Source of the DNA: a virus
DNA: 64,000 nt
Direction: 5' to 3' (one strand)
IMG/VR virus record: IMGVR_UViG_3300032294_002710
Location: 32,001 to 96,000 of that record
The stretch's first letter is position 1, and every line of letters begins with the position of its first letter. This document shows, one piece after another, positions 21,426 to 61,442 of this stretch. Below the pieces are notes generated by a model. The model made no database searches. It was not told the origin of the DNA and saw only the letters and a list, made by a program, of their open reading frames with translations. The position numbers were made by a program, and so were the translations under genes.

Positions 21426-21796
21426 GGGGATGATATGAATTGATTCGCAGAGTAGAGATGATTAAGCAGGCATCGGTTTGGTAAAGTCCGATTAAAATAA
21501 ATTATCAAAATCGTAAACGGAAACGTTACAAATGAAGTAGGAACCAGTGAAGATTTAGTAGCTGCTCTACAAAACAACTTGCTCACTGTGAATGAGCTTG
21601 AAGTAGCCTAATCTTAGGATACATTCTAAAAATTCACACTGAATCACAACAGTATAAATAGTGATAGTTTTTTGTTAGAGTGTTTTTGAGTCGAAACAAC
21701 TATCTATTTTGTAAGTTACAGAAAAACTTTCTAAGCTTGTGAACGATTAACCGTTTTTAACTGAGGAAGACTCCGGTTCGTTACCGGACATCTCCA
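21426..21796 (+). ncRNA. ssrA: tmRNA
   Basis: 5' GGGGATG pairs with 3' CATCTCC-A with a G3.U wobble (Ala identity). T-arm tccgg-TTCGTTA-ccgga. Internal tag ORF 21519-21611 after TAAAC. About 370 nt; CCA not encoded. Confidence 0.92.
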
Positions 21797-21828
21797 CTAA
21801 CCACTCCAAAGATAGTATTTTTGGACTG

Positions 21829-26588: not shown

Positions 26589-27047
26589 ATGAACGCTCAT
26601 AAAAAATTACGAGAACTTGGTTTTAAAAAGACCAATTTTTATAAGCCAGGTTATGACCCTGAGACTTATGAATCTTGTATGCTTTTAGATGAGTATGATA
26701 CTAAATGGGAAACAGTTAATGGTAAAAGAGTTTCAGTAAAAGTTAATAAGATACATCCTAAATCAGATTCATTTTGGGTTTTAAAGTATAATGAAAATTA
26801 TATACTTTGGTGTTATGTGAAGTCACATCAAATAGACAAAATATGGGTAGAGAATAAATTAGGAAAGAGTCGAAGTAAAAGTAGGTTGTTATATTATGGT
26901 GTTGGTTCGGGTGATGATAGGTTAAAAATGGTTTTTGATTATAATAACAGGGAATCAAATCCATTACAAGGTAAAAATCAAATTATGAATTTACTACCTA
27001 AAGAAGTAAAAAGAGATTTCTTACTTGAACAACTTTTTGGATTTTAA
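26589..27047 (+). CDS. Hypothetical protein
   Basis: 152-aa ORF directly after TATATTTG (26576-26583). Confidence 0.6.
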   Translation: MNAHKKLRELGFKKTNFYKPGYDPETYESCMLLDEYDTKWETVNGKRVSVKVNKIHPKSDSFWVLKYNENYILWCYVKSHQIDKIWVENKLGKSRSKSRLLYYGVGSGDDRLKMVFDYNNRESNPLQGKNQIMNLLPKEVKRDFLLEQLFGF

Positions 27048-27139
27048 TATATAATATTGTATATTTGTACTATGTTTAAAATTTGACTACATAATTATTA
27101 GCGTCTGTGAGTAAAAATCTACTCACAAACAATTTTATT
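27045..27139 (+). promoter_or_regulatory. Release-factor leader: promoters, mini-ORF MFKI-UGA and hairpin
   Basis: TAATATATA at 27045, TATATTTG at 27060, ATG TTT AAA ATT TGA CTA at 27072-27089, stem tgtgagta/tactcaca at 27106-27127. Confidence 0.55.
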
Positions 27140-27163
27140 GTCTAAAAAATAAAAATAATAATT

Positions 27164-27841
27164 ATGGAACAAATCATTATAGAAATAAGAGCCGCTGAAG
27201 GTGGACAAGATTCAAAACTACTTGTTGAAGATTTAAGAGATATCTATCTCAAAACTGCTAGAGTTAATAACTTTGATTATAAAGTTACTAATCGTGATGG
27301 ATTTACATCAATTTGACTGACTGGTCAGGGAGTTAAATCACTTTTTAAAAACGAAAGTGGTCCTCATCGTTGGTTAAGAATTCCACCAACTGAGAAGAGA
27401 GGTCGAACACAAACTTCAATTATCACTGTTGCACTAACCGATCCTAATGATAAATTAGATTTCAGGTTTAATCGAAATGAGGTTATAAAACAATATACTC
27501 GTAGTAGCGGAAAAGGTGGACAGAATGTTAATCGTAGATCTACCTGTGTTCAATTAACCCATGTACCAACTGGTATTCAAGTTAAATGTCAGGATCAAAG
27601 AGATCAAAGTAAAAATGAGGAATTAGCTTGGATTCGTATTGAAGAGAAACTTAGAATAATACATGATGATTCTCAAAGTAAGACTATTTATCAAAATCGT
27701 TTTGATCAAGTTGGTACTGGTTCAAGATCGGATAAAAAAAGATCATATAGGATCAAAGAGAATTTGGTAGTTGATCATGAGACTGGTAAAACCTGCACAT
27801 TTACTGACTTCTTAAAGGGAAGAATTGATTTATTGTCCTAA
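27164..27841 (+). CDS. prfA: Class-I peptide chain release factor, RF1-like, lacking domain 1, with in-frame UGA at codon 51 (readthrough or pseudogene)
   Basis: Manual translation: MEQIIIEIRAAEGG...GFTSI*LTGQGVKSLFKNESGPHRWLRIPPTEKRGRTQTS...RSSGKGGQNVN...THVPTGI...QDQRDQSKN...RSDKKRSY. TGA at 27314-27316; absent from the ORF track. Confidence 0.9.
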
Positions 27842-28582
27842 TATTAATTTAAACTCCTCTTCATTTTTAAAACTTTTTTTGGTATTATTTTTCCTTTTGG
27901 TTATACAAAGGTTATCAAGTGATGATATTTCTTCTACTTGATAACCTTTTTTAAATCCTTCAAAGATAGAAATCTTGTGGTCTATTGTTGGATATCTTTC
28001 ATCGTTATAGTTAAGATTGAAGTTTATTTTTATATCTTCTCCGTCATAATAATCAAGTCCGTTCCATTCTTCTATTAGTTTCTTCTTATTTCTTTTGGTT
28101 AGATTGTCAATTAGTTTTCTGTATCTGATGTATTCACTCTTTTCGTCTTCAGATATAAAAATATTATTAATTTGAAAGTAATTATTTACAGACTTTGATA
28201 TTTTATCTTTAATTTCTGGATTATCCTCATAGAGTTTTAAAATAGAGTTTCTTATTTTTTCTCTAACTTCTGGTTTTTTTGCGGGATTTTTACCTCCAAT
28301 TTTTGAATCAGAGTATCTCTTTTTCGACTCATCACTTCTTACTTTACCTTTACAAGATAGACCGATTTTATCTTTATGTTCTTTAGATAATTTTTTTCCT
28401 TTGTGTGACTCAGATAGATTTTTCTTATGATCATCAGAAAAAATTTGTCCTTTTTTTACTTCTGATTGCTTTTTGTAGCCACATTTTCTACAAGAGGAGT
28501 TTTTATCATTTGCTATATTTAAAGAGTCCTTTGACTTATAAGTTATCTCGACAAAACATAATGGACAATTTCTTTTATACAT
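27830..28582 (-). CDS. Homing endonuclease-like protein (NUMOD3 repeats plus HNH-like domain)
   Basis: HKKNLSESHKGKKLSKEHKDKIG repeats; TIDHKIS...NLCITKRKNN. Confidence 0.75.
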   Translation of the reverse strand: MYKRNCPLCFVEITYKSKDSLNIANDKNSSCRKCGYKKQSEVKKGQIFSDDHKKNLSESHKGKKLSKEHKDKIGLSCKGKVRSDESKKRYSDSKIGGKNPAKKPEVREKIRNSILKLYEDNPEIKDKISKSVNNYFQINNIFISEDEKSEYIRYRKLIDNLTKRNKKKLIEEWNGLDYYDGEDIKINFNLNYNDERYPTIDHKISIFEGFKKGYQVEEISSLDNLCITKRKNNTKKSFKNEEEFKLILGQ

Positions 28583-38137: not shown

Positions 38138-38656
38138 ATGTTAATCAAGGTAAAAGGCATATTAGAGTTTAGCCCTGAGGATGTTACTAAAAAGCACAAG
38201 AACCAATCCTCTTGGAAGCGTGTCGCTATGATTCGTACAGATTGTGACATGGATCGATACTATGCTTGGTTTCTAAGGAAAAGATTCAACCTTGAATTGA
38301 ACAAGAATTTGAGAGGATCTCACGTTACTTTCATCTCTGACAAATTAGAAAAGTCTATTTTTGACGAGGCTTCAAGAATATTTAACGGTAAGGAGATTGA
38401 TTTCTATATTGAAACTGAACCAAGAAGTAATGGAGAGCACTGGTGGTTGAGAGTTCACTGTCCAGATGCTGAGAGTATCCGAGAAGCTCTTGGATTATCA
38501 AGAGATCCATACTTTGGATTGCACTTAACTATTGGTCACGCTAATGAAAGAAATATCGAGCACTCTGAATACATTGTTAGACAATGTAAGATGTTTGAGT
38601 TGATTTCAAATGAACCAAGAAAATCATTTAACGAACATGATATTAAAGAGTTCTAA
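38138..38656 (+). CDS. 2H phosphoesterase-superfamily protein
   Basis: Two HxT motifs, SHVTF and LHLTI. Confidence 0.65.
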   Translation: MLIKVKGILEFSPEDVTKKHKNQSSWKRVAMIRTDCDMDRYYAWFLRKRFNLELNKNLRGSHVTFISDKLEKSIFDEASRIFNGKEIDFYIETEPRSNGEHWWLRVHCPDAESIREALGLSRDPYFGLHLTIGHANERNIEHSEYIVRQCKMFELISNEPRKSFNEHDIKEF

Positions 38657-59993: not shown

Positions 59994-61442
59994 ATGGCAA
60001 AGTTTAACACAACAGTACCAAAACAAAAAACACTAACTACTAATTTAGCTGGTGGACAGGCTTATCAACAATCAAGTGAGTTGGAATTGGTTTCAATCCT
60101 TTTAACTTCATTTGTTAGTGACCAATTTTATCGTCAATCTGGTGATACTTTAGAAAGAGTTAAAACTCTTTTAGATAAAGTTAATCCTAAATTTGCGGCT
60201 AAGACTGCAATTTTTGCTCGTGATAAGTTTGGAATGAGAAGTATTACACACGCTTTAGCTGGTGAGCTAACCTCAAAACTTGGTGGTCATGAGTGGTCAA
60301 AGGACTTCTATGATAAAGTTGTTGTTCGTGTTGATGATATGACTGAAATTATGTCTTACTATCTTGAGAATAAAACAGATAAGTCTAAACCAAAGTTTCC
60401 AAATGCTTTGAAGAAAGGATTTGCATCAGCTTTTGATAAATTTGATAACTATCAAATTGCTAAGTATAAGAATGAAAATAAAGAAGTAAAACTTGTTGAT
60501 ATTGTGAATTTGGTTCACCCAGTTCCTACTACTTCAAATAAGGATGCTCTTTCAAAACTTGTTGCTGGTAATCTGAAGTCTACAGATACTTGGGAATCTA
60601 AACTTTCTAAGGCTGGTCAAGAAGCATCTAATGATGAAGAATTGACACAATTGAAGTCTGATGCTTGGGGAGAACTTCTTACTACAAGAAAAATTGGATA
60701 CTTTGCACTTCTTAGAAACCTAAGAAATATTATTAATCAAGCTCCACAATTTGTTGGACTTGCTTGTGACCTATTGGTTGATGAAAAAATGATTAAGTCA
60801 AGTCGTGTTCTTCCATTCAGATTTGCAACTGCTTATGAAGAGATTTCTAAATTAGGATCTTCTTCTGATGTTAGAAAGGTTATGACTGCATTACACCAGG
60901 CTTTGGACATTTCATCTGTAAATATTCCTAAGTTCGATGGTGAGACATTAGTAGTACTTGATGTATCAGGATCTATGAGTGGTAAACCATCTGAGATAGC
61001 TTCTCTTTTTGGAGCTATGTTGGCTAAGGCTAATAACTGTGATGTTATGACATTTGCTACAAGTGCTAGTTATAAGTCTTATAACCCAATGGACTCAATA
61101 CTTACTATTAGAAATGGATTCCGCTTCTCTGGTGGTGGTACGAACTTTAAGGATATATTCTTAAAGGCTAATAAGAAATATGACCGTGTTATTATCTTAT
61201 CAGATATGCAAGGTTGGATGGGTTATACAACACCAGCTTCTGAATTTAATCTTTATAAGAAGAAATTCAACTGTAATCCTTATGTTTACTCTTGGGATTT
61301 GGCTGGACTTGGTACAATGCAACTTCCAGAAAGTAATGTATTTGCATTAGCTGGATTTAGTGATAAGGTATTTGATATTATGAAGTGGCTTGAAACAGAT
61401 AGAAATACACTTTATAAAATGATAAATGATATAGAAATCTAA
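59994..61442 (+). CDS. rsr: Ro60/TROVE-domain RNA-binding protein with vWA domain
   Basis: TNLAGGQAY, FARDKFGMRS, TWE, ALLRNLRN, SRVLPFRF, MIDAS DVSGSM, GGGT, LSDMQ. Confidence 0.93.
   Translation: MAKFNTTVPKQKTLTTNLAGGQAYQQSSELELVSILLTSFVSDQFYRQSGDTLERVKTLLDKVNPKFAAKTAIFARDKFGMRSITHALAGELTSKLGGHEWSKDFYDKVVVRVDDMTEIMSYYLENKTDKSKPKFPNALKKGFASAFDKFDNYQIAKYKNENKEVKLVDIVNLVHPVPTTSNKDALSKLVAGNLKSTDTWESKLSKAGQEASNDEELTQLKSDAWGELLTTRKIGYFALLRNLRNIINQAPQFVGLACDLLVDEKMIKSSRVLPFRFATAYEEISKLGSSSDVRKVMTALHQALDISSVNIPKFDGETLVVLDVSGSMSGKPSEIASLFGAMLAKANNCDVMTFATSASYKSYNPMDSILTIRNGFRFSGGGTNFKDIFLKANKKYDRVIILSDMQGWMGYTTPASEFNLYKKKFNCNPYVYSWDLAGLGTMQLPESNVFALAGFSDKVFDIMKWLETDRNTLYKMINDIEI

Follow-up and report, generated by a model that had tools for sequence, protein, structure and literature searches.

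We describe a compact leader upstream of a recoded release-factor (RF) gene in a 64,000-nucleotide stretch of viral DNA (hereafter the window), which corresponds to bases 32001-96000 of the 134,852-bp IMG/VR record IMGVR_UViG_3300032294_002710. In this leader, a short upstream open reading frame (uORF) closes at TGA, continues in frame to TAG, and carries between the two stops a segment complementary to the start region of the RF gene. On balance, we favor the reading that the leader is a translational attenuator that reports the speed at which stop codons are read, through which the phage RF would probably be made only when termination is slow. The anatomy itself, as compared across homologous loci, is in our judgment very likely real and conserved. 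Its elements are listed in Table 1, in window coordinates.

Table 1. Elements of the leader and the release-factor gene.
Feature	Position	Strand	Description
Promoter-like element	27036-27067	+	TTTG (27036-27039), 20-nt spacer, TATATTTG (27060-27067)
uORF proper	27072-27086	+	ATG TTT AAA ATT TGA; four sense codons, UGA followed by C
P0 outer helix	27081-27085 with 27170-27174	+	ATTTG (including TG of TGA) pairs with CAAAT in RF codons 3-4; present in the minimum-free-energy (MFE) structure
Read-through extension	27087-27101	+	CTA CAT AAT TAT TAG
P1 5' arm	27090-27100	+	CATAATTATTA, between TGA and TAG
Local hairpin	27106-27127	+	8-bp stem 27106-27113/27120-27127, 6-nt loop, enclosed by P1
P1 3' arm	27156-27166	+	TAATAATTATG; last three bases are the RF start codon (27164-27166)
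Release-factor gene	27164-27841	+	225 codons; PPT and GGQ motifs; domain 1 absent; TGA at codon 51

Homologous loci were gathered from GenBank phages, IMG/VR and metagenome contigs, leaving 145 distinct loci after duplicate removal. The 19 loci with an RF sharing 55% or higher identity with that of the window are called close here and the remaining 126 distant, and W denotes the window's own locus. A frame that opens with ATG and proceeds through TGA and 3-4 sense codons to TAG was found in 13 of the 19 close loci (counting L110, a doubtful one-codon ATG-TGA case), as opposed to 6 loosely similar arrangements among the 126 distant loci. The uORF TGA lies 61-92 nt before the RF start and is preceded by three codons in L025, L008 and L029, four in W and L024, 11 in L027, 13 in L109 and 14 in L030; in L002, L010/L028 and L113 it closes a longer upstream ORF, which spans 65-131 codons in L002, L010 and L113. 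The frame is always kept though its length and sequence vary, as illustrated by the segments TGA CTA CAT AAT TAT TAG in W, TGA CTA ACT AAG CTT TAG in L027, TGA ACT GAT TAC TAG in L010, and TGA GCT TTC TTG TAG in L109. Among near relatives, W and L024 differ by a synonymous TTT/TTC exchange, and L008 has AAC for AAT. The second stop is TAG in every leader of the clade that has such a uORF, even though TAG is the rarest stop genome-wide (5 of 142 long ORFs), and the base that follows the uORF TGA is C, A or G but never T (12/12). A conserved arrest peptide was considered and rejected, since the extension peptides differ by lineage (LHNY, LTKL, TDY, AFL).

An ATG followed by 0-15 sense codons, TGA, 2-5 sense codons and TAG occurs 35 times on both strands of the record, or about 0.02 times per 140-nt window, and only one of the 35, the copy in the RF leader, stands behind the promoter motif. 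The 14-mer TACATAAYTATTAG is unique in the window, and with up to two mismatches it has 5 matches against 4.5 expected. A search of IMG/VR with an 18-mer from the leader returned 10 stretches; only two of them, L008 and L009, both known beforehand, precede an RF gene, the other eight being unrelated coding sequence. Ahead of the uORF in L008 (positions 2830-2895), about 31 nt comprising the end and stop of the upstream gene are tandemly duplicated just before the promoter motif.

A first-pass annotation, made from the letters alone, had pointed to a promoter, a mini-ORF and a hairpin at this site, and had set recurrence of the mini-ORF with its TGA and in-frame TAG upstream of homologous RF genes as its own test; the arrangement does recur, including in leaders that cannot be aligned. 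Its positions were likewise borne out, with TATATTTG 4 nt ahead of the mini-ORF (27072-27101) and the 8-bp stem of the hairpin present in the MFE structure. It had further noted the octamer ATTTGACT, which is indeed found both at 27081-27088 and at 27311-27318 around the in-frame TGA of the RF gene. The identity with the RF stop is kept only in the window and L024, whereas in the other 10 loci a different codon precedes the uORF TGA, so the octamer is not conserved. We rejected it as a shared signal, and from the sequences its occurrence at both stops is probably incidental.

The promoter-like element, which we take to be of the Bacteroidota -33/-7 type, places the uORF ATG 4 nt after TATATTTG, and the uORF and the RF gene presumably share one transcript. 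Matches to TTTG-N17-21-TAnnTTTG number 20 in the 134.9-kb record, compared with 7.4 +/- 2.5 in shuffles, and TATATTTG stands 4-7 nt before the uORF ATG in L025, L029, L008, L030, L109 and L119. In addition, three long ORFs begin 4-6 nt past the motif (window position 38138, ORF 38138-38656, and record positions 111537 and 113455), pointing to phage mRNAs with very short leaders or none. This spacing suggests that phage genes start at or beside the 5' end of leaderless or near-leaderless transcripts.

The segment that would connect the uORF to the RF gene is the extension itself. CATAATTATTA is the exact reverse complement of TAATAATTATG, and the two arms give an 11-bp helix, P1, which is present in both the MFE and the centroid structure of 27069-27185 (RNAfold). 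The leader folds at -24.2 kcal/mol with a z-score of -5.36, and none of 200 shuffles was as good. Outside P1, the helix P0 is weakly conserved (67.5% of cells paired, covariation absent). In the homologous leaders, the RF AUG pairs with the UGA and extension, or just past the TAG, in 9 of 10 MFE structures, L027 being the exception. The folds of L107, L109 and L113 pair the AUG likewise (z-scores of -1.9, -4.7 and -3.7), and in L114 it pairs inside a UAG-ended uORF (z = -3.9). The partner differs from lineage to lineage: in L010 and L028 the RF start has its 13-nt complement 4-5 nt beyond the TAG; in L109 and L113 the partner is UUCUUGU(AG), which pairs with the start region or with RF codons 3-4; and in L002 and L030 the helix takes in the G of the TAG. 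As modeled, other lineages rebuild the anti-start helix from unrelated sequence. No Rfam family matched 27045-27163 at E-values up to 1. Pairing of the RF start does not cleanly follow the presence of the uORF: the AUG is unpaired in L003, L004, L005 and L110, and weak pairings of the RF start occur in L033, L136, L111, L117 and L122, which do not carry the uORF element.

Within the alignment used for pair counts, 88.6% of the P1 cells are paired and two pairs are changed on both sides: one goes from U-A to U-G in L025 and to C-G in L008, while the other is an A-C mismatch in L002 and G-C in L030. The covariation score of 0.063, compared with 0.041 +/- 0.009 in shuffles, was reached by 5 of 500 of them, and over the whole structure 81.9% of cells are paired, against 38-52% when the partners are slid. 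A swap test is more independent than these counts. Here, the segment that begins with the codon preceding the TGA and ends 15 nt beyond the TAG was matched with RF start regions from -15 to +13, and in 10 of 13 loci it bound its own RF start region more strongly than that of any other lineage. For the genome background, duplexes of the same geometry at 141 ORFs average -5.7 +/- 2.8 kcal/mol, compared with -11.1 for the RF leader. Such a duplex at one locus alone is unremarkable, but it is remarkable that five lineages of differing sequence have it. What the compared sequences show is thus the anatomy and its conservation, together with the complementarity and co-variation of the arms.

We also simulated the footprint of a ribosome with UGA or UAG in its A site by blocking the nucleotides beneath it in 11 loci. 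In 8 of these (the W, L002 and L113 types), the RF AUG, which is unpaired with a probability of about 0 in the free leader, reaches 0.16-0.73 under the block. In L010, the start region becomes looser with a ribosome at the UAG only (its mean unpaired probability goes from 0.31 to 0.57), and even then the AUG is largely paired (0.08), and in L027 the RF start is open with or without a ribosome. Together with the fold, the covariation and the swap test, the simulation indicates that the RF initiation region would be sequestered by leader sequence that a leader ribosome would cover.

These results recast the proposal of the first-pass annotation, in which a termination-sensing attenuator acts through the local hairpin and read-through to the UAG ties termination efficiency to downstream expression. 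The sensing arrangement stands in so far as the uORF, TGA and TAG are conserved and a hairpin recurs. The hairpin, in turn, is neither a terminator nor in contact with the RF start, and in simulation a ribosome at the UGA already opens that start, read-through to the UAG being needed in L010. The element able to link the uORF to RF expression would instead be the helix between the extension and the start codon, which that annotation had not noticed. The covariation check it had called for gave one G-C to U-A change (L107) and one G-C to G-U change (L008) among the six leaders of the window's sub-clade, where 87.9% of the hairpin cells are paired. Unrelated hairpins replace that of the window at the same place in L002, L030 and L109, and in L010 and L028 the hairpin is absent while the anti-start pairing is kept. 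Its reservation about a poor U tract was well placed: the stem is followed by AAACAA with no U tract, the combination of a G+C-rich hairpin and a directly following U tract that marks an intrinsic-terminator attenuator is lacking, and a simple scan found no terminator-like site in 26800-27950. Judged by its sequence, then, the hairpin is not a terminator, and it may act as a clamp, shortening the loop that an all-A/U helix has to close.

The product of the downstream gene matches PF03462 (PCRF, C-terminal half, 5e-17) and PF00472 (RF-1, 1e-25). Against the NCBIfam models it scores 179.9 bits for RF1 (cut-off 400) and 116.4 bits for RF2, both under cut-off because domain 1 is missing, and its 225 aa align to positions 105-333 of the 347 in the RF1 model. 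Its best matches in the PDB are RF1 structures as well (140 bits, compared with 80 bits for RF2). By these comparisons it is an RF1-type class-I release factor that is not full-length. Under the tripeptide rule, a factor with PPT reads UAA and UAG only, and the same is predicted for the window's protein. Codon 51 of the gene is an in-frame TGA (27314-27316) past which the reading frame continues unshifted, so that the RF domains run on in the zero frame and not in the +1 frame of prfB-type recoding. This site is kept in all 12 leader-bearing loci and in every close homolog examined, some relatives have added a second TGA, and among 84 in-frame TGAs of RF genes the following base is A in 49, C in 27, G in 8 and T in none.

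Short phage RFs that lack domain 1 and mostly carry PPT form a large family, nearly all members of which are recoded. We collected 288 database homologs, and a scan of distinct loci gave about 72 with a same-frame TGA, about 40 with a +1 shift at Leu-TGA, about 15 with a +1 shift at Leu-TAG, and about 12 with no stop. The 56 more distant members that need +1 comprise 40 with TGA, 15 with TAG and 1 with TAA, and their shift site sits in domain 2, unlike its position in cellular prfB. At site 51, L033, L034, L124 and L127 have an in-frame TAG, while the homologs P0024, P0041, P0044, P0052, P0059, P0062, P0063 and P0083 have C, L, S or Q; a single base change separates codons for C, L and S from TGA, and one for Q from TAA or TAG. 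Across these sequences the site seems to toggle between stop and sense. On the opposite strand, a 250-aa ORF (27830-28582, -) is convergent with the RF gene and shares 12 nt with its 3' end; it matches NUMOD3 weakly (E = 4e-4) and is perhaps a homing-endonuclease-like gene.

In bacteria, UGA is an RF2-specific stop and UAG an RF1-specific one, and UAA is read by both factors. We infer that the uORF is translated and that P1 blocks initiation, as well as the signal and direction of regulation, in the following way. The mRNA would start at or just before the uORF ATG, and P1 would fold and hide the RF start, with the local hairpin as an internal clamp that brings the P1 arms together. All ribosomes on the uORF would arrive at a UGA in weak context, with no U after it. 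Where RF2 acts fast, the ribosome would depart and P1 would re-form; where termination is slow, the waiting ribosome would cover the 5' arm of P1, and upon read-through the arm would be translated and the ribosome would wait at a UAG that only RF1-type factors can read. With P1 open, another ribosome could initiate on the RF gene, in which the UGA at codon 51 would act as a second RF2-dependent filter. As the phage product is itself RF1-type, the leader UAG would provide negative feedback, and the UGA would report on the other factor. The net effect would be that phage RF1 rises as termination capacity runs short and falls once RF1 is abundant. Because both factors read UAA, the main stop of the phage (it ends 121 of the 142 long ORFs), the sensor pair would report the total capacity for that codon.

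A more specific form of this mechanism, which we offer tentatively and consider rather doubtful, is a two-channel termination meter that reads UGA through RF2 and then UAG through RF1, with phage RF1 supplied only when UGA is no longer an efficient stop. UGA would have lost its efficiency through depletion or shut-off of RF2 or through a host code in which it is sense, a state that the leader would detect jointly with the UGA inside the gene; the RNA between UGA and UAG would act as a lid on the RF1 start codon, and the domain-1-less RF1 would switch itself off via the UAG.

Several observations weigh against attenuation by stop decoding. Six of the 19 close loci are without the UGA-UAG form: L106 and L114 have UAG-ended short uORFs with no UGA, L107 has AGA in place of TGA (its frame still runs on to CAT AAT TAT TAG), and L111, L117 and L136 have nothing comparable. 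L027 retains the uORF with its UGA and UAG and lacks convincing anti-start pairing, in L025 and L008 it is the UGA codon itself that pairs, AGUCAUGG with CUAUGACU, and not the extension, and in L109 the RF AUG is already partly unpaired in the free leader (0.36) and gains little from a ribosome at either stop. The pair counts come from an alignment of only eight leaders, with the structure derived from one of them. All helices are A/U-rich, and the minus strand, as helices would lead one to expect, folds as well as the plus strand (-26.8, z = -5.0), so that the assignment of strand rests on a few G-U pairs. Values like those of the window's leader also occur elsewhere in its genome: the paired probability of the RF AUG is 0.998 against a genome mean of 0.60, but 5 of 142 ORF starts are as high; its MFE ranks 10th of 142 ORF starts, with the lowest G+C of the top ten; and 8 of 141 ORFs have an upstream/start duplex as strong or stronger (p ~ 0.06). 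Because PPT predicts reading of UAA and UAG only, the UGA steps would not be self-regulation. Finally, the runs that contain the stretch are freshwater metagenomes (DNA), with no RNA run listed among them. Leader-spanning contigs from three freshwater DNA runs belonging to three studies (X2, X3 and X6) are identical over 27050-27201 and first differ at 27202, an invariance that is too weak as evidence because the end of the upstream gene is equally unchanged.

The strongest of the rival explanations, although we regard it as unlikely, is a code-state gate combined with RF1 feedback, in which UGA is read efficiently as sense at the time when the RF gene is on. The leader peptide would then be the full 9-codon ORF to the UAG, where a dwelling ribosome opens P1 in a plain RF1 autoregulator, and the UGAs of leader and ORF would only prevent product in cells that still stop at UGA; the sense reading might stem from the host code, from phage shut-off of RF2 or from an unseen suppressor. 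Sense codons do occur at both UGA positions (the AGA of the L107 uORF, and C, L, S or Q at site 51), L106 and L114 have UAG-ended uORFs with no UGA, four loci have TAG at site 51, and in-frame TGA is otherwise absent from the window's long ORFs. General recoding of TGA was rejected for the window, where the RF gene is the sole long ORF that gains real coding sequence through an internal TGA. Backup stops also fit the gate: after the TGA-ended ORFs the next TAA or TAG follows at a median of 4.5 codons, compared with 9 for the rest (one-sided Mann-Whitney p = 0.045), with TAA directly after TGA in 2 of 16, and such backup stops after TGA are a habit reported, in the accessible part of one study, for phages compatible with UGA-sense hosts (PMC10746230). 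Nevertheless, TGA closes 16 of the 142 long ORFs of the record, next to 121 closed by TAA and 5 by TAG, and no suppressor tRNA with anticodon UCA was found by ARAGORN among the record's 28 tRNA genes, all of which lie outside the window, with 76% of the genome missing. Nor did it find this anticodon in two complete relatives used for tRNA comparison, where it covered 46 of the 50 Rfam tRNA hits of LR756502 and 53 of the 61 of LR745206, a few oddly shaped tRNAs being left out. The type of promoter, together with the host prediction for the largest relatives in the accessible text of PMC7162821, points to Bacteroidetes, which use the standard code.

The remaining alternatives are less likely. 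Constitutive damping or coupling without sensing, which we consider quite improbable, would have the uORF and the helix merely fix a low rate of synthesis for a factor harmful in excess, with stop-codon identities incidental to base pairing. The genome-wide counts given above, in which a fully paired start or an equally strong duplex is not rare, agree with this, as do the pairing of the G of TAG in L002 and L030 and an internal UGA that already limits output; it does not account for an in-frame TGA followed by TAG in leaders with unrelated sequences and pairing partners, for TAG as the constant second stop when base composition alone predicts TAG for about 23% of stops, or for the absence of T after TGA. 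If the conserved 14-20 nt had no function as RNA, they could be a DNA site such as an operator, or what is left of the 3' end of an older gene, as in L002. The palindrome ATAATTAT is present in both arms, the arm core is self-complementary in the window, and the TGA does close long upstream ORFs in L002, L010 and L113. Even so, the arms are complementary and not direct repeats in L010, L109, L113 and L008, the compensatory and G-U changes fit RNA, and preservation at 56-60% protein identity implies constraint, which makes this explanation very unlikely. Least probable of all is the transcription attenuator of the first-pass annotation, in which transcription would end at the hairpin as long as its 5' arm is not covered by a ribosome that has read through. 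In its favor, the hairpin exists and is kept within the sub-clade, and a ribosome at the UAG would, in the simulation geometry, extend to 27111; against it stand the absence of a U tract and of terminator-like sites, the A-rich sequence that also follows the hairpins of L002, L030 and L109, and the two lineages (L010, L028) that dispense with the hairpin and retain the anti-start pairing.

Among known systems, we would cautiously place the leader as a form of leader-ORF translational attenuation in which the controlled gene is a recoded viral release factor. In ermC/ermB, cat, cmlA, secM-secA and mifM-yidC2, a ribosome held in a leader ORF opens a helix that locks the downstream initiation region. 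The phage leader shares with them a short upstream ORF and a downstream start that is predicted to be locked by a leader helix. It differs in that the holding point would be stop decoding, at UGA and then UAG, and not an arrest peptide that depends on a drug or on force, in that its peptide is not conserved, and in that there is no Shine-Dalgarno sequence and the start codon itself is paired. In MS2 and Qbeta, ribosomes on an upstream cistron melt a long-range helix that hides the next start site, and ribosomes in the upstream frame of our phage would likewise melt a helix over the downstream start; this frame, however, has 4-9 codons, and the arm lies beyond a leaky stop, so that opening would depend on termination kinetics.

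The autoregulatory +1 frameshift of prfB, which encodes RF2, also ties release-factor expression to slow reading of an early in-frame stop. In contrast, the phage RF stays in frame past its TGA, is RF1-type, so that UGA would not be its own codon, and would have its sensor partly moved to a separate leader ORF; many distant members of the phage RF family do shift to +1, at a TGA or TAG preceded by a Leu codon. According to the accessible part of PMC5009743, neither read-through in the same frame at an early UGA of RF2 genes nor the UAG/RF1 counterpart was known in bacteria in 2016. The nearest precedent is the class-I release factor gene of Mimivirus and Megavirus, a virus-encoded factor under stop read-through whose synthesis needs read-through of a stop codon plus a frameshift (Jeudy et al. 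2012, PMC3521657, accessible part). That factor, however, is of the eRF1 (eukaryotic/archaeal) type, and the same part of the article mentions neither a leader ORF nor start pairing. Phages recoded at TGA have been described, in the available portion of 10.1101/2021.08.26.457843, to carry RF1 'code change' genes in standard code beside genes for a suppressor tRNA and tryptophanyl-tRNA synthetase (TrpRS), and in these, too, a phage RF1 is linked to the status of UGA; here, by contrast, the RF1 gene carries the UGA while the rest of the window does not, and a suppressor tRNA was not found. Our literature search found no description of such a leader, with the caveat that supplementary tables of phage papers, which lay outside the search, might list RF genes.

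The record is a fragment of a huge T4-like phage, with a CheckV completeness of 24%. The window has a G+C content of 29.5% and encodes a T4-like portal, a gp23-type capsid protein, ribonucleotide reductase and a B-family polymerase. Among public sequences, the gene next to this leader has its closest relatives in uncultured 'huge phages' of 634-735 kb, and Bacteroidetes hosts have been predicted for genomes larger than 634 kb (PMC7162821, accessible text). Upstream of the leader, a region at 21426-21799 (+) resembles a transfer-messenger RNA (tmRNA) gene, matching Rfam RF00023 at 38.2 bits (E = 1.2e-12), which does not reach the gathering score of 47, and it was not called by ARAGORN; it shares the TTTG-N-TATATTTG promoter motif with the RF leader. 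A Ro60-like phage protein of 482 aa is encoded at 59994-61442 (+), with a TROVE match at E = 7e-16 and weak vWA/Ro60 matches.

Release-factor supply is the classic case of recoding feedback, and in bacteria only the RF2 frameshift is established. If our reading is true, the leader would extend this with a separate leader ORF that meters stop decoding, with tandem factor-specific stops, and with a viral RF1 placed under such control; in the more doubtful two-channel form, it would be a natural sensor of 'genetic-code state' and the first case of same-frame stop control of a bacterial-type release factor. With a length of about 100 nt and a modular build, it could also serve as a natural reporter of termination capacity. 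More broadly, the finding bears on why huge phages carry termination genes such as RF and tmRNA, and on the ways in which phages deal with a changed meaning of UGA or bring one about.

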